From UHGV virus genome UHGV-1321070: a stretch of DNA of 36,303 nt. One strand, 5' to 3'. Under the pieces are notes generated by a model. The model did no database searches. It had not been told where the DNA came from and was given only the letters and a program-made list of their open reading frames with translations. Shown here piece by piece: positions 49-34,397 of the stretch. This DNA is from a virus. A program made the translations under genes and the position numbers. The first letter of the stretch is position 1. Each line of letters opens with the position of its first letter.

Positions 49-217
<169 letters not shown>

Positions 218-607
218 TTACTCTTTTTTCTCCGTATCTGCATCGGGTTCATCAGCAAATAGCTTGCCCTGCATCCGATCCAGTTCTTCTTTTCTTACCC
301 GCTTAACCACGCTGTAGACCCACTGAAGCGAAACACCAAATTTGCGGGCCAGTTCGTGGTGGTTGCGTCCGTTAAACTCCCTGAAGATTTCCCGGTCGCG
401 CTGACTGACCTTCCATACCATGCCCATCGGGAAATAAACGTTTTGCCCGCCCCAGACCTGCATCATTCGGTTCGCGACGGCCTGACCAATCTGGTCGGCA
501 ATTGCGGGCTCAATATCAATAATCTCGCGAACGGTCTCAGAGGTATGCTGTGCCAGTTCCACCAGGAGTTCCGGCCCTTTACTTCGAAACTGATTCAGGT
601 CGCTCAT
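218..607 (-). CDS. mor: Mor/C-family transcriptional activator (middle/late gene activator)
   Basis: 129 aa; pattern GGQNVYFP.G...RDREIFREFNGRN..ELARKFGVS...VY..VKRVR matches the conserved core of Mu Mor/C as I recall it; last gene of the early operon, as in Mu. Confidence 0.8.
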   Translation of the reverse strand: MSDLNQFRSKGPELLVELAQHTSETVREIIDIEPAIADQIGQAVANRMMQVWGGQNVYFPMGMVWKVSQRDREIFREFNGRNHHELARKFGVSLQWVYSVVKRVRKEELDRMQGKLFADEPDADTEKKE

Positions 608-1070
608 GTTTTACTCCCGCAGCTCTGCGCTGCCACTTCTTCAGTTTCTCAATAACACTACTTGCCTGTTCAGTATTGAGCCAGCGCAGGGCGCTGATGC
701 CCGTTTCCCGCTTGATCCACCGCGCTAATGCATTTTCTGAACGGTCACGAACAATGCCGGCAGCAGCCATTTCAAGCCATAGCGCACGGATTTTCCTGGA
801 CTGCGGATGGTTATCCAGCGGTAAACCGGAGCTGGCTTTTCCGGCAGGCTTAACGCGAAAGCCTTTCCTTTTCATGGATTCCAGCACGCAGTTTAGTTGT
901 GTGGTATCCATTCCTTTGGTTGAGGCTTTACCGGTCAGCCCCTGTAACATCTGGCGGTAGGTGTCTTCATCCATACCCAGTTCATTACGGGCAATATGAA
1001 TGAGCTGGATAAGACGTTGTTTAGTCATCATCGTTGCTCCTTTTACCTGCGCCACCGATATAATCGACAT
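579..1070 (-). CDS. gemA: GemA / Mu gp16-like regulatory protein
   Basis: 163 aa; motif LIQLIHIARNELGMDEDTYRQML...KASTKGMDTTQLN is typical of the Mu GemA (gp16) family; sits immediately upstream of mor as in Mu. Start codon uncertain (29-bp overlap with mor). Confidence 0.65.
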   Translation of the reverse strand: MSIISVAQVKGATMMTKQRLIQLIHIARNELGMDEDTYRQMLQGLTGKASTKGMDTTQLNCVLESMKRKGFRVKPAGKASSGLPLDNHPQSRKIRALWLEMAAAGIVRDRSENALARWIKRETGISALRWLNTEQASSVIEKLKKWQRRAAGVKHERPESVSK

Positions 1071-1236
1071 ATAAAGGAAGCGCCACAGGCCAGCACAGGA
1101 ACATCACCGACCAGCTAATCCAGTAGCCAGCACCACTGTAACGTGAATAAAACCCTGAACGGCGGTGCAGTTCAGCAGTACACCAACCGACAAAACAATA
1201 CCAGAACAGGGCACATACAACAGATTCAGCAGTCAT
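1021..1236 (-). CDS. Small hydrophobic protein (about 71 aa, two predicted TM helices)
   Basis: Trimmed from the 123-aa track ORF to the internal Met (MTAESVV...), which is preceded by a GGGGGG Shine-Dalgarno-like run; highly hydrophobic. Coding status uncertain. Confidence 0.3.
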   Translation of the reverse strand: MTAESVVCALFWYCFVGWCTAELHRRSGFYSRYSGAGYWISWSVMFLCWPVALPLYVDYIGGAGKRSNDDD

Positions 1237-1452
1237 TCTGAATATCCCCCCAACTGATATGAATATTACGGGCAGCAATGACAGGGTCGTTATTCCACCA
1301 TGCACCTGACATGTATTTTTCAACCTGTTCGCGTCCGGCAATAACACCAATTGTGATCCCCGGCCTGACGTTCTTAAAAAAGGCGCGGGCAAAAAGGTAT
1401 CTGGCAGATATTCGGCAGGCTTTTAATTTCCGGCTTTTACCTGATAGCGTAA

Positions 1453-2172
1453 TCATCTGGCCTCCAGTTTCTGTTGTTCCTGCCCACTGACCGGGCGGTG
1501 CAGTCTGACGTTCTGCCCTTCAAGAAACCCCGCATAGCGCGAGGCGTCGCCATTGCGGCTTCTTCCCGGTTTACGCGCTCTGGTGGTTTGCGTTTGCGGG
1601 TATTTATGTTCCAGCCACTGCTGCATCAGTTCACGTTCGTCATCGGTCAGGGCGAAGGACTGTATTTCACTGATAACGGCCAGCACCCAGCCTTCAGCAA
1701 ACTGGTCACCACGGCTGGTACGGGTGGCAGTTTTTATTCTTTTGTTCTGTGCGCTGATATATTGCTGACGCGCCTTTTTCAGCTGGCGGGCCAGCACTTC
1801 CCAGGTGTATGCAGCCAGTGCCGCACGTTCCCGGTTGCCGTAGAACCCCACAGACGGATGCGTGCCGGGGTGAATGATGGAGTTAACACCAAATACCTCG
1901 CGGATGATGTTCATCAGGCCCAGCATGTAGCGCGGTGGACGGAGACTGCCTGTCGGCCAGTAGTGACTGATGGTTTCATCAATATCACTCATAGCAATGT
2001 CGGAATGTGTGATGCCGTGAACATCCATCAGTTTACGGGCTCGGCGCAGTGCCAGAGCGGCCTCGTGCGGGTTGCCGGATGCGGCCAGCGCCAGCAACTT
2101 TTTCAGTTTCTCAATGTGTTTATTCTGGTCTGTCATTGTTCTGTATCTCCGGTATTTTTCTGCCGTTTCCAT
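1453..2172 (-). CDS. Conserved phage early protein (DUF2786-like N-terminus)
   Basis: 239 aa; N-terminal KHIEKLKKLLALAASGNPHEAALALRRARKLM resembles the DUF2786 signature found in many prophage early regions. Confidence 0.5.
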   Translation of the reverse strand: METAEKYRRYRTMTDQNKHIEKLKKLLALAASGNPHEAALALRRARKLMDVHGITHSDIAMSDIDETISHYWPTGSLRPPRYMLGLMNIIREVFGVNSIIHPGTHPSVGFYGNRERAALAAYTWEVLARQLKKARQQYISAQNKRIKTATRTSRGDQFAEGWVLAVISEIQSFALTDDERELMQQWLEHKYPQTQTTRARKPGRSRNGDASRYAGFLEGQNVRLHRPVSGQEQQKLEAR

Positions 2173-2348
2173 GCCCGGACAGCGTCGGACAGCTCTTTCA
2201 GGCTGTATGCTGCTTTAAGCTTTTCCCATAACCACTGTGTTGTTATGTGCATCAGCAGGGCAGCCAGGGCTGCCCCCGCACTGAGGCATGTCGCCAGGCC
2301 AGTAAGAATCAGTATCCATGCGGTGATTTCCCTGAGTATGTCAGCCAT
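2133..2348 (-). CDS. Small membrane protein (71 aa)
   Basis: One strongly hydrophobic segment (WILILTGLATCLSAGAALAALLM); tightly packed in the early operon. Confidence 0.35.
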   Translation of the reverse strand: MADILREITAWILILTGLATCLSAGAALAALLMHITTQWLWEKLKAAYSLKELSDAVRAWKRQKNTGDTEQ

Positions 2349-2362
2349 TGAATGCCTCCCGG

Positions 2363-2659
2363 TTACTCGTTCGTGTAAATCACGCCCAGTCGTGCAGCCA
2401 GACGTTCCAGTTTTTTCTGTTTGTGGAAGTCAATCAGCCGGTCCATCCCCTGAAGGCGCAATTGCTCTGTCATGATTTCCACGTCTGCCAGCTCTGCCGC
2501 GAGGTCGCTTTCGCTGCCCTGTCCGTTCAGATTGCGGGCAGCACTGGCCGCCAGTTCAGCGGCCTCTTCTGTCAGTTTCAGGGCCTGTGCGTCCGGCCCG
2601 AAACGCTGCAGGGCCAGACGGTAGAGGGCGGTGCGGGTGAGTATGGTGTTCCGTGTCAT
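2363..2659 (-). CDS. MazG-like nucleotide pyrophosphohydrolase (small all-alpha NTP-PPase)
   Basis: 98 aa with the paired acidic motifs EEAAEL and ELADVEIM characteristic of MazG/HisE-type pyrophosphohydrolases. Confidence 0.55.
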   Translation of the reverse strand: MTRNTILTRTALYRLALQRFGPDAQALKLTEEAAELAASAARNLNGQGSESDLAAELADVEIMTEQLRLQGMDRLIDFHKQKKLERLAARLGVIYTNE

Positions 2660-2668
2660 GCCGCGCCC

Positions 2669-2941
2669 TCAGTGCTTCCGGCTGACGGTGATGTGCAGGC
2701 CGCCTTCTGCAGTGGTTTCCATCCGGTACGGCACCTCATGCGCTGCCGTGTGGGTTAGTGTGTTCACCAGTACCTGCAGGGCAGCCGCCTTTCCGTTGGT
2801 CGCCACAATGGCTTGAGCGGTCATGCTGATTAGCGCCGTCAGGACGTGCTTCACATCGGTGAGGTCGCGGCATTCACACTCGTTGACATAGTGTTCAACA
2901 AGGGTTCGGGTGCGCTGTCGTGCTTCCTGTGGGGTAATCAT
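2669..2941 (-). CDS. Hypothetical early protein (90 aa)
   Basis: ORF in the early operon, stop overlapping the next start; no recognisable motif. Confidence 0.4.
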   Translation of the reverse strand: MITPQEARQRTRTLVEHYVNECECRDLTDVKHVLTALISMTAQAIVATNGKAAALQVLVNTLTHTAAHEVPYRMETTAEGGLHITVSRKH

Positions 2942-3132
2942 TGCGAGTCCTCCCTGTCAGGGCGGGAGAATTCCATGACGGGCACGTCTGCCGAAAAATG
3001 CTGGCTGCAGTACGGGCAGACCAGGGTGACGCGTACCGCAGGGATGTGGTATTTACCGGACATCACGGCGATGGCGCTGTGAAAACGCAGGGCTGTTATA
3101 TCCCTCTCGCACTGAATACATTTAAATATCAT
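2938..3132 (-). CDS. Zinc-ribbon protein (CxxC...CxxC), 64 aa
   Basis: Cys pairs at C5/C8 and C39/C42 (KCIQCER ... VCPYCSQ); similar in size and Cys pattern to small phage zinc fingers such as Mu Com, but no adjacent mom-like gene. Confidence 0.4.
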   Translation of the reverse strand: MIFKCIQCERDITALRFHSAIAVMSGKYHIPAVRVTLVCPYCSQHFSADVPVMEFSRPDREDSQ

Positions 3133-3787: not shown

Positions 3788-4057
3788 TTACCACAAAGAT
3801 TCCGGCCACACGACGCGACAGCCGTGCAGTTCGAAAACGCCCTGACGGAAATATCCCCTGTGGTCATGTCCGGTATACAGATAACAGGCCTTTCCCTGCT
3901 CAAGCATGCGCATGCAATGCGCACTCCGGGAAACGCGGATGACAGGTTTGTTACCCCTGATGGTGATGCTTTGTACATCCGTGTTCGTCGCCTTAAGCGC
4001 CATAATGGCTGACTGCACTTTGCTGATTTGCTGGTTGATACCTGTGGTGGATTTCAT
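3788..4057 (-). CDS. Hypothetical early protein (89 aa), position of kil-type genes
   Basis: ORF between B-like ATPase and gam; no motif recognised. Function inferred from position only. Confidence 0.35.
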   Translation of the reverse strand: MKSTTGINQQISKVQSAIMALKATNTDVQSITIRGNKPVIRVSRSAHCMRMLEQGKACYLYTGHDHRGYFRQGVFELHGCRVVWPESLW

Positions 4058-4059
4058 TA

Positions 4060-5226
4060 TTAAACCCCTTTGACAACGTCAGCGTTGACCTGTGGAACCC
4101 CGATTTCAGCGGCCAGATTCATGGCGGCTATTACCAGGTTACTGACGGCCAGCGGATACAGCAGGCTGACCATATTTTTACGGTGACTTCCCGGATTGCT
4201 CAGGCGGGCACGTATGGCATCCACTGCACCGGCGTCCATAATGTCCGTCAGCTGTTTACCGGCCCGTTGCAGTTTGAACGTCAGAAATTCTTCAAGGTTA
4301 TTGTCCAGAGGCAGAAGTTCGACCACCTCACAGCGCTGAACGACTTCACGGACTTCCATATTGCGTTCAGACAGTTTTGTCGCCAGTTCCGGCTGGCCAA
4401 TCAGCACGATGGACAGCAGTTTTTTGAAACCGGACTCCAGCTCAAAAAAGCGTTTGAGGTGTTTCAGTGTCGGAATGGGCAGACTGTGGGCCTCCTCAAT
4501 CACCAGAACGTGGCTGAACCCCGCCTGGCTGCTGTCTTTCAGGACGCGATGCAACTGGCGAAAACGGGCGTCCTGACTGCGTCTGATGCTTTCCAGTGGT
4601 GCGATGGTACTGATAATGGCTTCGGCAATAGCTGCTGCCTTCAGGGTTTTCCCTTTCACATCGTTGTCTTCCATAGCGATGATGTATGGCTCGATAACAA
4701 TTACCGGCGCATTCTCGCGGTTGATACGTTCAGTCAGGTCGCGGCGCAGCGTGGATTTACCCGCACCGGACTCACCGATGACGGCCATAAACCCACCATG
4801 ACGGGCTGTCTGGTACAGCGCCTCACGCACGTAGCGAATGTCCGGGGTGGTGAACACATCATCAGAACCCTGCATGGCTTCGTCGGCGAACGGGTCACGG
4901 AAAAGACCAAACGCTTTTTTGGTTGCTGGAAATAACACCTGTTTTTTGAGTAACATATTCTCTTCCTCACTGAGGCTCGTTTTATCTGTGGTACCCGCTG
5001 TACGGGGCGTGGCCGCGCCCTGTACAGCATCAAAACTCTTCGTTGTATCAATCCCCTGACTTTCCAGCCAGGACGCAAGACGCCGGCGCACTTCTCCGGG
5101 GCTGGTGCGGGGCCACGCGTTATGATTCACAATCTGGGCCAGCGTGGCCTCAGAAACATCGACAGCTCTCGCCACCACCGCCTGTGGAATACGGGCCTCT
5201 TTCAGTTGCTGCTTCAGTACCAGCAT
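4060..5226 (-). CDS. MuB-like AAA+ ATPase (transposition target-DNA activator) with N-terminal HTH
   Basis: Walker A GESGAGKST, Walker B-like HVLVIEEAH; start set at the Met preceded by GAGGAGGG (track ORF starts 39 nt upstream); immediately downstream of the transposase as in Mu A-B. Confidence 0.7.
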   Translation of the reverse strand: MLVLKQQLKEARIPQAVVARAVDVSEATLAQIVNHNAWPRTSPGEVRRRLASWLESQGIDTTKSFDAVQGAATPRTAGTTDKTSLSEEENMLLKKQVLFPATKKAFGLFRDPFADEAMQGSDDVFTTPDIRYVREALYQTARHGGFMAVIGESGAGKSTLRRDLTERINRENAPVIVIEPYIIAMEDNDVKGKTLKAAAIAEAIISTIAPLESIRRSQDARFRQLHRVLKDSSQAGFSHVLVIEEAHSLPIPTLKHLKRFFELESGFKKLLSIVLIGQPELATKLSERNMEVREVVQRCEVVELLPLDNNLEEFLTFKLQRAGKQLTDIMDAGAVDAIRARLSNPGSHRKNMVSLLYPLAVSNLVIAAMNLAAEIGVPQVNADVVKGV

Positions 5227-7934: not shown

Positions 7935-8306
7935 TTACAAACGACTACCTGAAATAACTCGTTGGTTGATTTCGTTAATACGATCCTGTGCACGCGCCAT
8001 CTCGTGACTGTGAGCCATGGCGATCTGTAGTAACTGGATTCCCGGTGCGAAACGTCCGTTCTCTAATTTCATGGCCAGTCCCTCTTCAATAAGGGTATTA
8101 AGTGCTCGATTGATATTCGCCGGGGACTCCCCCAGGGCTGATGCCAGTTCACCGTTAGAAACACCGTTCAGAGCATGACCGCGTAGAGCTTTGAGTACAC
8201 GTAGGATGCGGGTCCCAGAACTGGAAATATTTACTTTACTCATGTCACATTTCCATTTTTGCAATATGTGATAACCTGTTGCATATGTGGAAAATTTATG
8301 CCGCAT
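7935..8306 (-). CDS. Winged-helix DNA-binding protein (MarR/IclR-like HTH)
   Basis: 123 aa; segment GTRILRVLKALRGHALNGVSNGELASALGESPANINRALNTLIEEGL is a typical wHTH. Overlaps the ner-like gene by 11 bp; an internal start (MSKVNISS) is possible. Confidence 0.45.
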   Translation of the reverse strand: MRHKFSTYATGYHILQKWKCDMSKVNISSSGTRILRVLKALRGHALNGVSNGELASALGESPANINRALNTLIEEGLAMKLENGRFAPGIQLLQIAMAHSHEMARAQDRINEINQRVISGSRL

Positions 8307-8484
8307 TTGACGTGGGTTTTAATCCCAGTTTTACGGCAATTTCATGGGCTTTGCCGTAACGAGCTTTGGTCTGTCCATTGAGAACACGATAGACCTCATT
8401 GCGGCTGTAGCCGTGTTCTTCGGCCCAGCGGGTAAACGTGATACCACGCTGACGGAAGAGATTTTTAACTTGTTCGGAAGTCAT
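8296..8484 (-). CDS. Ner/Cro-like small DNA-binding regulator (first gene of early operon)
   Basis: 62 aa HTH protein (RWAEEHGYSRNEVYRVLNG) at the head of the leftward early operon, divergent from the repressor gene: the position Ner occupies in Mu. Confidence 0.55.
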   Translation of the reverse strand: MTSEQVKNLFRQRGITFTRWAEEHGYSRNEVYRVLNGQTKARYGKAHEIAVKLGLKPTSNAA

Positions 8485-8534
8485 TGTTGTCTCCTTTGTT
8501 GATGCAATGATGTTTGTTTTATATGTGATAGATT

Positions 8535-8996
8535 ATGAGAACTATTGTTCTCATTGTCAATGAGGTTTATGTGAATTTTGATTCTCTTTGCGCGTCGCGG
8601 TTCAAAGCTGAGCGTTCGCGGTTATCACTCAAGCAGGCTGAAGTAGCAGCCCTTTGTGGCGTTTCAAGAGAAATGTGGGGGAAATATGAACGAGGGGTTG
8701 CTGTTCCCGGAGGTGAGTTACTTGCAGCCTTTGCAAGAATTGGGGCCAATGTACAGTTCATTCTTACCGGGGAGTCATCAGGTATAACTTTATCACGTGA
8801 TGAAATGGAGTTACTGCAGCACTACCGGCAGGCACCATTACAGGTCAAAGGTTCAGTTTTGTCGGCCTTGACTACTGGCTCCTCCAGAGAACGGGCGGAA
8901 CAGGTTATTCATGGAGATGTTCTGGGGAATGTTATCAAAGGTAACGTAACCATAGGAACAGGTGGAATAATGAACAAAAATACCAAGAGAAGATGA
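8535..8996 (+). CDS. XRE-family HTH repressor (candidate immunity repressor c)
   Basis: HTH LSLKQAEVAALCGVSREMWGKYERG; divergent from the early operon. The true start may be the GTG at 8571, which follows a GAGG RBS and would place the palindrome upstream of the gene. Confidence 0.65.
   Translation: MRTIVLIVNEVYVNFDSLCASRFKAERSRLSLKQAEVAALCGVSREMWGKYERGVAVPGGELLAAFARIGANVQFILTGESSGITLSRDEMELLQHYRQAPLQVKGSVLSALTTGSSRERAEQVIHGDVLGNVIKGNVTIGTGGIMNKNTKRR
8537..8552. promoter_or_regulatory. Candidate operator: perfect palindrome GAGAACTATTGTTCTC
   Basis: 6-bp arms GAGAAC/GTTCTC around TATT in the divergent ner-like / repressor control region. Confidence 0.45.
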
Positions 8997-9979
8997 GTAA
9001 AGAGAAGCAAACAGTTAACGGGGATGTGGGTAACGTTGTCAGCGGTGATGTTACCATTCATAACTATTCTGCTGACATACTTCCTTCGGCCCAGCAACCA
9101 ATTTCGTTGCTGCAAAAACGCGATTTACACAGATTGATGGATGAATTGGTTGATCTGGGGGAAAGTAAGCGCGAGCTATGGATGACGATCCACACGAAAC
9201 TTAATACCAAAACAGTTAATGAAATGACTGCGGCTGATTATCATGGTGCGGTTGAGATCCTTCAGAGATATGCACAACAGATCCAGAATATGAAGGACTG
9301 TAATCTTCTGGTCAGCAAAATAATGGCGCTTACTGACCCTGGGTATCGTCTTGACCGTGACAGATACTGTCTGAAGCATTTCGGTACAACCCATCTTAAA
9401 GGCCTAGACAAAGAGCAGTTGCAGGCTGTGTTTGGTTATTTTGATGATCTGCTGAATATTCGTGATGAGAGTAAAACTCTATCACCTCCATCGGAAAGCG
9501 GTGCAAAATCAGTCGCAACTGTACCAACCAGAAGCCGGAAGCCTCATGTAGTAGTGTTGGGGGGAGTGTTAGTTCTTGTAGCAATATTTTTCGTGGGAAT
9601 GATTGTGTTCGCTGGTAAATGGGGAAATGCCAAAGCAGTAGCTTCTACTGAAACCAGCGTTTTTAACATTAAAACCAACGATAAAATAATAGAAGATTCC
9701 ATCCCCGCACTGCGCAGCATGTTTCCAGGGTTAAATAAGTACTCAGATGATTTCCATTCGGTTTCAAGCTACAAGCAAAAAACGGGCTGGCATACCCTTA
9801 AATTTACTGTATCAGCAAAGGCATCCGTCCCCGAAAATTATAGTGTTAAGGGCAAGGTTTGTTACATTAACATAAGCCCTGATGGTAGTTATGCTCGGGT
9901 TTTGACTGCTCCATGTCGTTCACTGCTACTTGATCAGCAAAGCACTCCTGACAGTAAATACCGTTTTATTCTTAAATAG
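8993..9979 (+). CDS. Single-pass membrane protein of unknown function (328 aa), translationally coupled to the repressor
   Basis: Start ATG overlaps the repressor stop (ATGA). One TM helix (VVVLGGVLVLVAIFFVGMIVFAG) separates a ~185-aa N-terminal domain from a ~120-aa C-terminal domain; visibly AT-richer than the backbone. Confidence 0.55.
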   Translation: MSKEKQTVNGDVGNVVSGDVTIHNYSADILPSAQQPISLLQKRDLHRLMDELVDLGESKRELWMTIHTKLNTKTVNEMTAADYHGAVEILQRYAQQIQNMKDCNLLVSKIMALTDPGYRLDRDRYCLKHFGTTHLKGLDKEQLQAVFGYFDDLLNIRDESKTLSPPSESGAKSVATVPTRSRKPHVVVLGGVLVLVAIFFVGMIVFAGKWGNAKAVASTETSVFNIKTNDKIIEDSIPALRSMFPGLNKYSDDFHSVSSYKQKTGWHTLKFTVSAKASVPENYSVKGKVCYINISPDGSYARVLTAPCRSLLLDQQSTPDSKYRFILK

Positions 9980-10060: not shown

Positions 10061-10651
10061 GTGATGAACATGGCAGGGATTCAGGTTATCGCAGGAAGTT
10101 TTCCTAAAGGGTGGGCAAGCATGGGGTTCGGTACCATCGTGTTTGCCAAAAAACCAAAACAAGGCTTTCCTGAAAATATTGTATTAAATCTGAAAGAAGA
10201 GCTTTTATCGATTGAACTTGCGGATAGTGAAGAGGAAAGCCGTATAGGTAAGGCGGCAGGCGCAGGTTTGCTTGGTGGATTAATCTTTGGTGGTGCAGGG
10301 TTGGTCATTGGAGGTTTGCTTGGTGCGGCGGACAAGACGAAAAAAACTATCACTTTTAAGGCAATGTTTACGGGAAATAGGTTACTTCTGGCTAAAACAG
10401 ATTCAAAAACTTTTGTAAAACTTCAGTCAATTGCTGCTGATAATGCCCATAACGCATCTGTAATCAACATGAAGCAAACTAACAGGGGCGATGTTTCTTC
10501 TCGTAAACAACTAACAGAAAATCCACAGCAGCAAGACTTACCTGCGCCCGCTACAACAGTAAAAATGACTGCCAAAGATAAGTTAGAATCGGCTCTTGGG
10601 CTGGGAATCATCGTTATAGCTGTTTGGGCAATAATACACTTCTTTTTTTAG
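10061..10651 (+). CDS. Glycine-zipper membrane protein of unknown function (196 aa)
   Basis: GKAAGAGLLGGLIFGGAGLVIGGLLGAA glycine-zipper segment plus a C-terminal TM anchor (LGLGIIVIAVWAIIHFFF); same strand as the repressor; followed by a terminator. Confidence 0.5.
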   Translation: MMNMAGIQVIAGSFPKGWASMGFGTIVFAKKPKQGFPENIVLNLKEELLSIELADSEEESRIGKAAGAGLLGGLIFGGAGLVIGGLLGAADKTKKTITFKAMFTGNRLLLAKTDSKTFVKLQSIAADNAHNASVINMKQTNRGDVSSRKQLTENPQQQDLPAPATTVKMTAKDKLESALGLGIIVIAVWAIIHFFF

Positions 10652-10653
10652 TG

Positions 10654-10678
10654 CAGCCCTTCAGGGCTGTTTCTGTTC
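10654..10678 (+). terminator. Rho-independent terminator-like hairpin between convergent genes
   Basis: CAGCCC-TTCA-GGGCTG stem-loop followed by TTTCTGTT; sits 3 nt after the TAG of the 196-aa gene and just past the stop of the convergent P-loop gene. Confidence 0.55.
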
Positions 10679-10688
10679 AGGAGGTATC

Positions 10689-11165
10689 TTAAGGATTATC
10701 CGGGGCGTTTTCCTGTTTGCCGTACTTCGGAGACGAACAACATTCTGTTGGCTGACCGGTGAGTTTACGTAACTCCTTCATGAGCAGCTCCTGATCGTAA
10801 ACTGTCATCAGTGCCGCAATGGTGGCATGCAGTGCATCGGGCAGTATCCAGGGTTGCCGGCCCGTGGGGCATATAACATCCAGCAGCTCATTCGTCCGAC
10901 AGATACGCTCCTCGCCGTATGACAACAGGCCCTGTCCCGTGTATTCCTCCAGCCTGATCACTGTGCCACCCCGTGGCTTCTGCCAGGTCGTCAGATCTTC
11001 GCCATTCATACGGCGCTCATTCTCCACGTCAGCAGCATCGACAATGACGCTGTTTCCGAGTTCCTGTTTCACCATCTCTTCTATCCGCGCCAGTACGTAA
11101 CTTTTACCGCTGCCCACAGGACCGGACACAGTGACAGTGATGACCGGATTCAGTGTGTGCGTCAT
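10689..11165 (-). CDS. Small P-loop NTPase of unknown function (158 aa)
   Basis: Walker A GPVGSGKS near the N-terminus and an acidic stretch (VIVDAADVE) that could be Walker B; convergent with the two preceding genes, divergent from the lysis operon. Confidence 0.5.
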   Translation of the reverse strand: MTHTLNPVITVTVSGPVGSGKSYVLARIEEMVKQELGNSVIVDAADVENERRMNGEDLTTWQKPRGGTVIRLEEYTGQGLLSYGEERICRTNELLDVICPTGRQPWILPDALHATIAALMTVYDQELLMKELRKLTGQPTECCSSPKYGKQENAPDNP

Positions 11166-32192: not shown

Positions 32193-32763
32193 GCCATTAC
32201 AACTCCCGCCACCGCTTGAGGGTGATATCAGTCTCAGGACGCTGGGAAGACTGGCAGGGCGGCTGGATAACATCGACCTGAGCGTACTGATGGTCTTTCT
32301 CGTCGATATCGTCGACAGTTCTGCGCTGCCATGGCTGGGCGAGCAGTTCTCACTGTCTGGCGATGGCTGGGAGCTGGCGGAATCGGACGATGTTCGCCGC
32401 ATGCTTATAAAAGCAGCCATCGAACTACACCGGTATAAAGGGACGCCGTGGTCAATCCGGGAAGTTATCCGCCGTTTTGGCTTTGGTGAAGTGGATCTGA
32501 TTGAAGGCACAGGTCGTCTCAGTTACGACGGCAATCGCAGCTATAACGGACTGTTTGTTCATGGAGATGCAGCCGCCTGGGCGGTTTATCGCGTTATTCT
32601 GAAACAGCCCATTACTAACGATCAGGCCGCGATGCTGCGTCAGACGCTCGCTGCATTTGCACCGGCCCGCTGCCATCTGGCCAGCCTGGAGTATCAGTCT
32701 GTGGCCATTCGCTATAACAATACCGCCATCCATGATGGCAGTTATAACCACGGGAGCAGTTGA
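32173..32763 (+). CDS. Tail protein I-like (baseplate component)
   Basis: 196 aa, between J-like and tail fibre genes. Confidence 0.55.
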   Translation: MECLMTEPLQLPPPLEGDISLRTLGRLAGRLDNIDLSVLMVFLVDIVDSSALPWLGEQFSLSGDGWELAESDDVRRMLIKAAIELHRYKGTPWSIREVIRRFGFGEVDLIEGTGRLSYDGNRSYNGLFVHGDAAAWAVYRVILKQPITNDQAAMLRQTLAAFAPARCHLASLEYQSVAIRYNNTAIHDGSYNHGSS

Positions 32764-34397
32764 TTATGGGAAACCTGAATGAAACAGAAAAGTGGGAAGA
32801 AAATATCTATCAACTGGAGACATCAGATCCGGTTCTGGGTGGTGCTGACGGGATATCAAATCGAGCCCCCCGGCAACTGGCAAACAGGACGAAATGGCTG
32901 AAGAAAAAAACGGAGGAAGCCGCACAGTCACTGGCTGAACACGTACGTTCCCGTAACCACCCGGACGCGACACTGACAGCTAAGGGGTTCACCCAACTGA
33001 GCAGTGCCACCAACAGCACCTCTGAAACGCTGGCCGCCACACCAAAAGCCGTCAAGGCTGCATACGACCTTGCAGCCGGCAAGGCACCCGTCAGTCACAC
33101 TCACCCGTGGAGTCAGATAACGGGAGTGCCTGCTGCCTCGCTGACGGCAAAAGGCACCGTACAACTGAGCAGTGCCACGGACAGTCAATCAGAAACTGAG
33201 GCTGCCACGCCGAAGGCTGTGAAAATCGCGTATGATCTGGCCCGGGGAAAATACACAGCCCAGGATGCAACAACGACCCGTAAAGGGATCGTACAACTGA
33301 GCAGTGCCACCAACAGCACCTCTGAAACGCTGGCCGCCACACCAAAGGCCGTCAAGGCTGCATATGACCTGGCTGCCGGCAAGGCCCCCGTCAGCCACAC
33401 TCACCCGTGGAGTCAGATAACGGGAGTGCCTGCTGCCTCGCTGACGGCAAAAGGCACCGTACAACTGAGCAGCGCCACGGACAGTCAATCAGAAACTGAG
33501 GCTGCCACGCCGAAGGCGGTCAAGGCTGCATACGACCTTGCAGCCGGCAAGGCGCCCGTCAGCCACACTCACCCGTGGAGTCAGATAACGGGAGTGCCTG
33601 CTGCCTCGCTGACGGCAAAAGGCACCGTACAATTGAGCAGTGCCATCAACAGCACGTCTGAAATACTGGCCGCCACACCGAAAGCGGTCAAGGCTGCATA
33701 CGATCTGGCAAACGGAAAACAACCGGCAGATGCCACGCTCACTGCTCTGGCAGGACTTGCCACTGCAGCAGATCGGTTGCCTTATTTTACCGGAGCAGAC
33801 CGCGCAGCGCTGGCAACCCTTACAGCTATTGGTCGCGCGATTATCGCTAAGGGCAGTATAAAAGATGTCCTCAATTACCTTGGTTTGGGGGAAGGCTCTG
33901 CATTGCCTGTTGGTGTACCGGTTCCATGGCCCACCGCCACACCGCCAGCAGGCTGGTTACAGTGCAACGGAGCTACGTTCACCAAAGAACAATATCCTGT
34001 TCTGGCCAGAGTCTACCCGACCCTCCGTCTTCCCGATTTACGCGGTGAGTTTATCCGTGGATGGGACGACGGGCGCAAAGTTGATACAGGACGTAAGTTG
34101 CTGTCCGCACAAGGGGCAACGCTGTTAAGAACAGCAATGCTGGATTATTATAACCAGGACACTACGGGAACCTCGGGGATAGTCGGCATGGGATTCAACA
34201 ATGAAGATTCCATTACAGACCTTCGTGAGGGCAGCTTTAAAATGCCGGACGGGACAACATTCAGCGATCCTGTCATGGCAATGTCAGACAATGGTATGCA
34301 GGCTACTATTCTGACCTCTATCAGAAGCGGGTATGCGAAGGGTATCACTGTCAGACCCCGTAGCATTGCACTTAATTACATTGTGAGGGCAGTTTAA
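32760..34397 (+). CDS. Tail fibre protein (constant N-terminus, repeat region, invertible C-terminus; current orientation)
   Basis: 545 aa; five copies of the phage-fibre repeat (QLSSATNSTSETLAATPKAVKAAYDLA); the 3' third lies inside the invertible segment, whose left recombination site is at 33868..33893. Confidence 0.8.
   Translation: MIMGNLNETEKWEENIYQLETSDPVLGGADGISNRAPRQLANRTKWLKKKTEEAAQSLAEHVRSRNHPDATLTAKGFTQLSSATNSTSETLAATPKAVKAAYDLAAGKAPVSHTHPWSQITGVPAASLTAKGTVQLSSATDSQSETEAATPKAVKIAYDLARGKYTAQDATTTRKGIVQLSSATNSTSETLAATPKAVKAAYDLAAGKAPVSHTHPWSQITGVPAASLTAKGTVQLSSATDSQSETEAATPKAVKAAYDLAAGKAPVSHTHPWSQITGVPAASLTAKGTVQLSSAINSTSEILAATPKAVKAAYDLANGKQPADATLTALAGLATAADRLPYFTGADRAALATLTAIGRAIIAKGSIKDVLNYLGLGEGSALPVGVPVPWPTATPPAGWLQCNGATFTKEQYPVLARVYPTLRLPDLRGEFIRGWDDGRKVDTGRKLLSAQGATLLRTAMLDYYNQDTTGTSGIVGMGFNNEDSITDLREGSFKMPDGTTFSDPVMAMSDNGMQATILTSIRSGYAKGITVRPRSIALNYIVRAV
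32981..33700 (+). repeat. Tandem direct repeats inside the tail-fibre gene (300-bp unit, about 2.4 copies)
   Basis: Sequence at 33001..33230 recurs nearly base-for-base at 33301..33530 (exact 300-bp offset), with a third partial copy to about 33700. Confidence 0.8.
33868..33893. other. Gin/Hin-type recombination site, left (within fibre gene)
   Basis: On the bottom strand reads TTCCCCCAAACC-AA-GGTAATTGAGGA, comparable to hix/gix sites (for example TTCTTGAAAACC-AA-GGTTTTTGATAA); sits at the outer edge of the 199-bp inverted repeat. Confidence 0.7.
33880..34078. repeat. Inverted repeat, left arm (199 bp, perfect)
   Basis: Reverse complement of 35298..35496 is identical over 199 bp by manual comparison; encodes GEGSALPVGVPVPWPTATPPAGWLQCNGATFTKEQYPVLARVYPTLRLPDLRGEFIRGWDDGRK in both fibre variants. 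Confidence 0.85.

Follow-up and report, generated by a model that had tools for sequence, protein, structure and literature searches.

Matched terminal motifs may couple a prophage repressor to a membrane-anchored Flk_N protein in BcepMu-like and other temperate elements

The window described here is the whole of the 36,303-nucleotide (nt) viral genome UHGV-1321070, a complete BcepMu-like transposable prophage of 36 kb from Escherichia coli. Its second, or repressor, arm begins with a pair of overlapping genes that encode an XRE-family immunity-repressor-like protein and a membrane protein of 328 amino acids (aa). The repressor ends in QVIHGDVLGNVIKGNVTIGTGG and the 328-aa protein opens with KQTVNGDVGNVVSGDVTIHNY. 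The likeness of these two motifs is non-random and maintained at the protein level, and across many lineages and several prophage kinds a change of motif type in one partner is mirrored in the other. From these sequence patterns, we consider it probable that the motif pair couples the repressor to a membrane-anchored Flk_N protein by like-with-like binding, thereby controlling repressor activity.

The repressor open reading frame (ORF; 8535, or GTG 8571, to 8996) ends in RAEQVIHGDVLGNVIKGNVTIGTGGIMNKNTKRR just before its stop codon, and the downstream ORF (8993 to 9979) starts with MSKEKQTVNGDVGNVVSGDVTIHNYS. An earlier sequence-only reading of this DNA had seen the same motif on either side of the overlapping stop and start codons, and the resemblance is as it described. 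BLASTP pairs RAEQVIHGDVLGNVIKGNVTI with KEKQTVNGDV-GNVVSGDVTI (11/21 identical, 17/21 positive, pairwise E=3e-4). The local alignment of the 45-aa tail with the 60-aa head scores 55, compared with a mean of 20.6 (sd 4.1, maximum 53) in 20,000 shuffles preserving the composition of both termini (p<=5e-5). The span it gave, 8909-9070, runs from H126 of the repressor to S26 of the 328-aa protein and is right but for its start, which is off by one base. Its remark that the DNA is no simple duplicate also holds, with aligned codons 60% identical in nucleotides and the same codon used at only 4 of the 11 identical residues. The repressor motif is built from three G[DN]Vxx units, with short hydrophobic stretches parted by glycines. 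Regular-expression and Smith-Waterman scans of all six frames found no third copy of the motif in the window. The three units resemble the A[D/N]LXX repeat of β-helical pentapeptide-repeat proteins, a candidate that we rejected because the window proteins have no pentapeptide-repeat Pfam match at E<=0.1 and the other motif types lack this periodicity.

The repressor matches Pfam HTH_31 (E=4.7e-7), a helix-turn-helix (HTH) family, and phrog_8 (transcriptional regulator). Its AlphaFold2 (AF2) model contains a confident HTH domain (residues 1–64), helices at residues 74–100, and a tail of 39 disordered residues with a predicted local distance difference test (pLDDT) score of about 40–50. Repressor homologs retain the HTH and the two helices that follow, and their C-terminal ends fall into discrete types. 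The window carries type A, QVIHGDVLGNVIKGNVTIGxGG, which is conserved in type-A homologs. The commonest type is INVSGxGNRVAGRDYxExKK; others are QIFNGDVSGQFAGNQIINNG, QxFHGxVGQVxxGD...VTFNVGG, and several more, giving at least eight distinct tail types, most of which are followed by a K/R-rich end. Some homologs are tail-less, some have a helical C-terminal domain, and a few have a Peptidase_S24 domain. Three paralogs of the last kind (P0092, P0093, and P0102), found in the same kind of Mu-like locus, carry the S24 domain where the window repressor has its motif tail. The window repressor itself has no Peptidase_S24 match in Pfam at E<=0.1.

The motif of the partner is the best-conserved part of that protein. 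Among 21 homologs of the 328-aa protein (Escherichia, Salmonella, Morganella, Yersinia, Serratia, and metagenomes), which diverge down to 44% identity, residues G10, G13, N14, V15, V16, S17, G18, V20, T21, and I22 are each at least 90% conserved. In the AF2 model, residues 1–29 are disordered (pLDDT about 44), residues 30–160 form a helical domain (pLDDT >90), a hydrophobic helix spans about residues 190–205, and residues 225–328 adopt an α/β fold (pLDDT >90); the hydropathy maximum, 3.0, lies at residue 186. Prediction of each protein alone, proposed as a check in the sequence-only reading, thus yields no fold for either motif, both being disordered, and well-folded HTH and Flk_N neighbors to which they are joined.

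Three lines of evidence assign the helical domain to Flk_N. PF27202 (Flk_N) is precomputed on the 328-aa protein and its homologs. The NCBIfam Flk model PRK10715 gives a partial match (E=2.9e-12), as it does for three relatives (range E=3e-12 to 4e-16), and hhalign aligns the family profile with aa 21–150 of E. coli K-12 Flk (97.9% probability, E=4e-13). On these profile matches, aa 30–160 is a Flk_N domain; the protein falls short of the full Flk family (NF007987 / PRK10715), scoring 46.6 bits over profile positions 14–143 of 339 against a cut-off of 353 bits. An exhaustive search returned 54 cluster representatives of the phage-type Flk_N family, mostly 180–270 aa long with the transmembrane (TM) segment at the very end, and every one of them has some G/N-rich N-terminal motif. 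In the 328-aa protein, the predicted TM segment at about residues 186–210 is followed by 118 aa more. The additional α/β domain, absent from most family members, which stop at the membrane anchor, has no significant fold match. At some loci, a zinc ribbon replaces Flk_N as the middle domain of the partner. Judged across these proteins, the constant features of the partner are the N-terminal motif and the membrane anchor. Given the lack of a signal peptide in the 328-aa protein and the positive charges ahead of its TM segment, the motif-bearing end is predicted to lie in the cytoplasm (N-in), the same compartment as the repressor. The label of membrane protein first given to it is thus correct for its anchor and incomplete for the rest, as the Flk_N domain and the motif are both predicted to face the cytoplasm.

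We compared the repressor tail with the start of the next ORF at 37 genomic and 75 viral loci around repressor homologs. Where the repressor has a motif-type tail, the next protein nearly always opens with the same type (Table 1), and a further pair has HGGQF..INNY on both tail and head. Over 53 non-redundant loci, cognate tails and heads score a mean of 39.2 versus 22.5 for non-cognate combinations (permutation p<=5e-5), and cognate pairs also score higher inside the largest class, NRVAGRDY (p=0.003). Among 78 non-redundant loci, 28 have both a motif-type tail and a matching head, six the tail only, six the head match only, and 38 neither (Fisher p=7e-10). Five of the six head-only cases are real NRVAGRDY tails missed by our crude composition filter, and the sixth (L030) owes its high score to a repeat/overlap artefact and was ignored. 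The match is displayed separately by each of the at least eight motif types, despite the relatedness of the loci. Homolog alignment therefore bears out the expectation of a motif conserved on both sides in part: it is near-invariant in homologs of the 328-aa protein and conserved in type-A repressors, whereas other repressors carry other types or none.

Table 1. Matched repressor tails and partner heads at individual loci
Locus	Source	Repressor tail	Partner head
L002	Pectobacterium	QIFNGDISGQFAGNQIIN	QEFNGTAQGQFSSRDIIN
L006	Izhakiella	GNRVAGRDFNENK	QNRVAGRDFNENK
L012	Pseudomonas	VGQYIHGSVNQSGVTFNV	VGQVAEGDINNYGININL
L095	viral contig	HGGQFSTGTINNY	HGGQFGQVINNY
L099	viral contig	IGKVGQIVQADNI	IGKVGQLIQTENI
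L080	viral contig	HRFALGDYHE	HRIALGDYYE
L066	viral contig	GQVSAENIYNI	GQVAANNIYNI
L029	Acidovorax	NSGMGAIQIG	NSGSGAVQMG
L118	Edwardsiella (CP011516.2)	SDQRIAGRDYHEHKD	GRRNRVGGRDFYERS
L120		AHGGQAAGGKI	GGGHAAGRDI

The match is also found from the other direction. In a reciprocal scan that started from Flk_N proteins, 39 of the 40 non-redundant viral loci had a matching ORF upstream, encoding proteins of 127–155 aa and, in two cases, 203 aa. Two Flk_N proteins from the profile search, P0176 and P0177, bore out a prediction of the match: upstream of each, at the Edwardsiella locus and at L120 (Table 1), lies an HTH gene with a tail that matches the head. Two control groups lack the match: downstream of S24-peptidase paralogs lie genes for unrelated, motif-free small membrane or secreted proteins, and the genes that follow tail-less repressor variants of this HTH family are likewise unrelated. 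The two genes are spaced from -1 to +44 nt apart, except in the Edwardsiella locus (114-3094), where a cassette of about 2 kb encoding the anti-phage toxin-antitoxin system RnlA/RnlB lies between the repressor and Flk_N genes and the match is kept. The repressor/Flk_N junction can thus serve as an insertion site for defense genes.

Three kinds of temperate element carry the module: transposable BcepMu-like prophages, a prophage with a MuA-type transposase, and integrase-bearing P2-like elements. The last kind includes Escherichia phage 520873 (NC_049344.1, 1819-2896), in which the repressor gp04 ends in LNISGGNNRIAGRDYNETKGR and the matching downstream Flk_N gene is disrupted, leaving two unannotated ORFs (55 and 115 aa); E. 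coli prophages of IMG/VR commonly carry an intact 216-aa version (L153–L197). This phage gave the sole protein match among phage GenBank records, where we found no match at the DNA level.

The window pair resembles the amyloid signaling motif pairs described in bacteria and fungi. These include the bacterial amyloid signaling motifs (BASS) 1–11, with Bell/NLR pairs and Bab/Agp of E. coli ECOR25, and the fungal (FASS) pair HET-S/NWD2 (bioRxiv 10.1101/2020.01.06.895854, 10.1101/2024.11.07.622273). In the known pairs, the effector carries a C-terminal motif and the sensor an N-terminal one, a small membrane-targeting protein is the effector, and in the motifs Q, N, G, V, and I are over-represented and K, P, and L under-represented (bioRxiv 10.1101/2020.01.06.895854, 10.1101/2024.11.07.622273). 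The arrangement here is the same: of two adjacent collinear genes, one encodes a protein with a motif of ~20–25 aa at its C-terminus, and the other a protein with that motif at its N-terminus. As in BASS, the collinear genes often overlap, glycines part short β-prone stretches, and there are many families, each with cognate matching; Bab/Agp, too, sits in a prophage. Relative to the rest of the proteins, our motifs are enriched in N (3.1x), G (2.3x), V (1.6x), Q (1.4x), and I (1.3x) and depleted in L (0.08x) and P (0.10x), with lysine only mildly depleted (0.81x). The differences lie in the domains and in the presumed output. Instead of an NLR or TPR-GreAB-PIN sensor with a Bell, HeLo, TIR, or CHAT effector, the window pairs an XRE HTH repressor with a single-TM Flk_N protein. 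Pfam, NCBIfam, and PADLOC return HTH_31/HTH_3 and Flk_N rather than a sensor and a cell-death effector, and the output would be gene regulation, not cell killing. Fibril formation, prion behavior, and templating are traits of the known pairs, and the likeness of ours to BASS is drawn from their published description. The disorder of both motifs in the AF2 monomers speaks neither for nor against a BASS-type β-arch.

The mechanism we propose has two partners, made from one transcript by translational coupling, that would each present a disordered end-motif of ~20 aa, rich in G, N, and V and matched to the other: the repressor in its C-terminal tail, the Flk_N protein at its cytoplasmic N-terminus. 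The motifs would bind like with like by β-strand stacking of similar sequences; like-with-like association is the simplest reading because such stacking favors identical residues on both partners. Binding would physically couple the repressor to the membrane protein, and the coupling would set or switch the amount of active repressor through membrane recruitment, sequestration, or co-assembly. Control of the active repressor level is the most likely consequence because the repressor lacks a LexA-type autocleavage domain, and the outcome would be a RecA-independent input into lysogeny maintenance or induction. The earlier suggestion of a shared interaction or oligomerization motif is strongly, if indirectly, supported by the near-invariance of the head and the co-variation of types; direct binding, a β-type geometry, the N-in topology, and control of repressor activity are our inferences.

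The motif appears dispensable for basic repression, since tail-less repressors exist. Together with the S24 paralogs, which carry an inactivation domain at the same position, this makes the coupling look like an accessory input to the regulation of repressor activity. As to the direction of control, the protein with the C-terminal motif is the controlled one in known pairs and the protein with the N-terminal motif senses; by this analogy, the repressor would be the target and the Flk_N protein the sensor.

Several observations weigh against the proposed coupling. Six of the 34 motif-type tails defined by the crude composition filter, some of them at contig ends, lack a matching downstream head, and at L025/L026 the tail is followed by an unrelated downstream protein. 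Since the loci are related and the DNA segments for the two motifs tightly linked, the permutation p-values exaggerate independence. In Lonsdalea and Pseudomonas, a second class of loci encodes a membrane protein with an internal G/N-rich motif next to a repressor that ends in a motif-less helical domain, and a repressor-side copy is therefore not always needed. The functional output, finally, is argued from analogy and from the position of the motif where paralogs carry S24. The second class comprises L007–L011 (Lonsdalea) and L016–L019 with L078 (Pseudomonas), at about 4001-4950. Its repressors end in ...VLKLVINR, and its TM proteins begin with a helix, DxELxxKLxxRL..NLP, followed by an internal motif of the IKIKGDHGNINLGTQ type. 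This class may represent a different docking solution.

A stronger version of the coupling, an amyloid-type, prion-like templating switch for prophage induction with the Flk_N protein as sensor, is tentative and in our view somewhat doubtful. A membrane or envelope signal would cluster the N-terminal motifs and nucleate a cross-β fold. This fold would then template the repressor tail, and the polymerized, inactivated repressor would leave the transposable prophage derepressed without RecA.

Among readings other than coupling, the best placed, although unlikely, is that both motifs independently bind a common third partner, such as a protease, a chaperone, or another phage protein, or that each only self-associates. 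Similar sequences can act as the same recognition signal, and the membrane proteins of the second class have a motif without a repressor copy. The C-terminus of Mu-type and LexA-type repressors is also where inactivation inputs are received, in keeping with the S24 paralogs described above. A conserved host factor is an unlikely reader, however, because at least eight motif types occur in closely related host backgrounds on repressors with a conserved HTH. The absence of a third motif copy from the 36-kb prophage and the fine-scale cognate matching within a single class also count against this reading.

Less probable still is a reversed flow of control, in which the membrane protein would be an effector, with a role in superinfection exclusion or abortive infection or with a lysis-related function, that the repressor tail either activates or keeps inactive; the motif pair would then signal to the membrane what state the repressor is in. 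Exclusion or defense genes, such as lambda rexAB, often follow prophage repressor genes. Holin and endolysin genes lie just downstream in the window, and the membrane-targeting protein is the effector of known amyloid pairs. Yet those effectors carry the C-terminal motif, which would make the repressor the controlled partner. Flk, the closest relative, regulates rather than kills, and PADLOC returned no defense-system match for the membrane protein or its relatives, only generic HTH matches.

We regard as very unlikely an evolutionary relic without a present matching function, left by a junction duplication, an ancestral fusion or split, or repeated gene conversion. The two copies do lie within about 110 nt and are inherited together, with tight ATGA packing, and the reading frame of the 328-aa protein is already open at 8945, so that a -1 slip would fuse both proteins. 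A relic is hard to reconcile with a head motif that stays near-invariant while its protein diverges to 44% identity. Recent gene conversion was rejected on codon usage, as only 41% of 277 identical aligned residues in 28 cognate pairs share a codon, in line with the 4/11 of the window. The match kept across the 2-kb Edwardsiella cassette weighs against explanations that depend on adjacency, whether frameshift fusion or local conversion. The sequence-only reading had raised both an ancestral fusion or split and a frameshift-prone overlap, and neither is supported. The overlap has no canonical slippery heptamer and the spacing of the genes is not conserved, which excludes a conserved frameshift fusion. 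A fused, all-in-one HTH-Flk_N protein was not recovered by the profile search, which gave only close relatives, and an apparent 559-aa fused ORF at L036 proved to be an artefact of masked bases. Chance resemblance between two glycine-rich termini, short and compositionally biased as the motifs are, is refuted by the shuffles, the conservation in homologs, and the type-specific co-variation in many lineages.

The query region is 100% identical to prophages of E. coli IAI39, CE10, and about 100 further complete genomes. In the IAI39 annotation, one strand encodes a ner-like DNA-binding protein, one HTH and one DUF3102 protein, a transposase with an integrase catalytic domain, an ExeA/MuB-like protein, and Gam. 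The opposite strand encodes the repressor ('helix-turn-helix domain-containing protein' WP_001259268.1), two hypothetical proteins, and then a holin and a transglycosylase. The repressor gene is thus divergent to the ner-like gene and transposase module (Table 2).

Table 2. Features of the repressor region in the window
Feature	Coordinates	Strand	Basis
ner/cro-like small HTH gene, first of the divergent early operon (HTH, DUF3102, transposase, MuB-like)	8296..8484	-	phrog_925, E=1e-32; IAI39 annotation
Near-consensus sigma-70 promoter, TTGACA-17-CATAAT, facing the ner-like gene	8532..8560	-	consensus match only
XRE-family (HTH_31/HTH_3) immunity-repressor-like gene	8535..8996 (annotated ATG 8535; GTG 8571 alternative start)	+	Pfam, phrog_8
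Repressor C-terminal motif QVIHGDVLGNVIKGNVTIGTGG	8901..8966	+	sequence, BLASTP, conserved in type-A homologs
Basic C-terminal end of repressor, IMNKNTKRR	8967..8993	+	sequence, homolog tails
ATGA stop/start overlap	8993..8996	+	sequence
328-aa membrane protein gene (phrog_10002; WP_000031883.1, annotated 'hypothetical protein')	8993..9979	+	PHROG match, IAI39 annotation
N-terminal motif QTVNGDVGNVVSGDVTIHNY of the 328-aa protein	9008..9067	+	near-invariant in 21 homologs
Flk_N domain PF27202, about aa 30–160, predicted cytoplasmic, helical	9080..9472	+	PF27202, PRK10715, hhalign, AF2
Single TM segment, about aa 186–210, RSRKPH just before	9548..9622	+	hydropathy, AF2
C-terminal α/β domain, aa 225–328, presumably periplasmic	9665..9976	+	AF2 pLDDT >90
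Third operon gene, 196-aa membrane protein (phrog_12025)	10061..10651	+	PHROG match, ORF list
Terminator-like hairpin closing the repressor operon	10653..10670	+	terminator scan

The ATGA overlap implies translational coupling of the repressor and 328-aa protein genes, and the purine-rich stretch within 8967..8993, just upstream of the second start codon, may be linked to the ribosome-binding site of that gene. The genes for the repressor, the 328-aa protein, and the 196-aa protein look like one operon, because the terminator scan of the repressor arm found no terminator-like site before the hairpin at 10653-10670, the only such hairpin of the region. The 196-aa protein has a glycine-rich hydrophobic segment and a C-terminal TM segment. 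The predicted promoter on the opposite strand would mark the early lytic promoter region that the repressor would control. It runs from 8560 to 8532 and is overlapped by the annotated repressor start, ATG 8535. The true start is probably GTG 8571, since homologs begin MNFDSLC; GAGG at 8562-8565 precedes this codon. Between the repressor operon and the lysis genes lies a 158-aa ORF (10689-11165, minus strand) that RefSeq calls 'ABC transporter ATPase'; it has only a P-loop-like N-terminus, GPVGSGKS, and lacks a convincing family match. Elsewhere, a 168-nt tandem repeat (2.6 copies, 85% identity) at 33282-33710, inside a 545-aa ORF (32760-34397) that is probably a tail fiber gene, produced spurious high scores between antisense ORFs in the adjacent-pair scan.

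The putative coupling recalls other ways of controlling a DNA-binding regulator. The LexA/CI-type autocleaving repressors (HTH + Peptidase_S24) share the HTH family of the window repressor and have S24 at the position of its motif tail. The window repressor lacks S24, and the S24 paralogs lack a motif-bearing downstream partner. Regulators can also be sequestered at membranes, as with Mlc by PtsG and with anti-sigma factors, and Qtip of phage VP882 is an antirepressor that aggregates a phage repressor. In those systems, as would be the case here, a membrane-bound or aggregating partner controls the free pool of the regulator; they do so through folded domain interfaces, not a shared short terminal motif, and no sequence relationship to them came to light, although no search aimed at one was made.

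Flk (RflH, 'Fluke') of Salmonella and E. coli regulates the specificity switch of flagellar type-3 secretion; it faces the cytoplasm and is anchored in the membrane by its C-terminus (PMC13344023). The 328-aa protein shares with it the homologous helical domain (Flk 21–150) and would likewise be held at the inner membrane by one TM segment and face the cytoplasm. Flk differs in having, by eye, two Flk_N-like repeats and a proline/glycine-rich N-terminus without the motif. The 328-aa protein contains a single repeat, bears the motif at its N-terminus, and adds a 100-aa domain past the membrane; it is prophage-borne and paired with a repressor in no flagellar context. In E. coli K-12 flk (NC_000913.3 2437950-2438945), the apparent tandem repeats read PLSSQQRTSLESL... 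and PLLPAEHNALKQL.... Two repeats in flk compared with one in the phage proteins raise the question of a prophage origin of flk.

Full-text searches of open-access papers and preprints returned the amyloid-signaling literature and nothing on repressor/membrane-protein motif pairs, Flk-like proteins in prophages, or this gene pair. What appears to be new, on the comparison with known pairs, is the domain context in which a matched terminal motif pair of amyloid-signaling type occurs here, together with its presumed output. To our knowledge, there are few accounts of how a repressor that lacks a LexA-type cleavage domain is switched. Many temperate phages have such repressors, among them Mu-like and P2-like prophages of E. 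coli, Salmonella, Serratia, Pectobacterium, Pseudomonas, and Pasteurellaceae, and a co-evolving motif link offers a concrete, genetically testable hypothesis for their switching. The prion-like switch, if real, would explain the induction of S24-less repressors of many Mu-like and P2-like prophages and would extend amyloid signaling from cell-death effectors to the transcriptional control of lysogeny. If the motifs stack as cross-β, this would be the first amyloid-type signaling on a transcription factor and the second bacterial functional context after Bab/Agp, and matched terminal motif pairs would be a wiring device more general than the NLR/effector paradigm suggests. The pairing would also give a first functional context to phage-borne relatives of the poorly understood flagellar regulator Flk.

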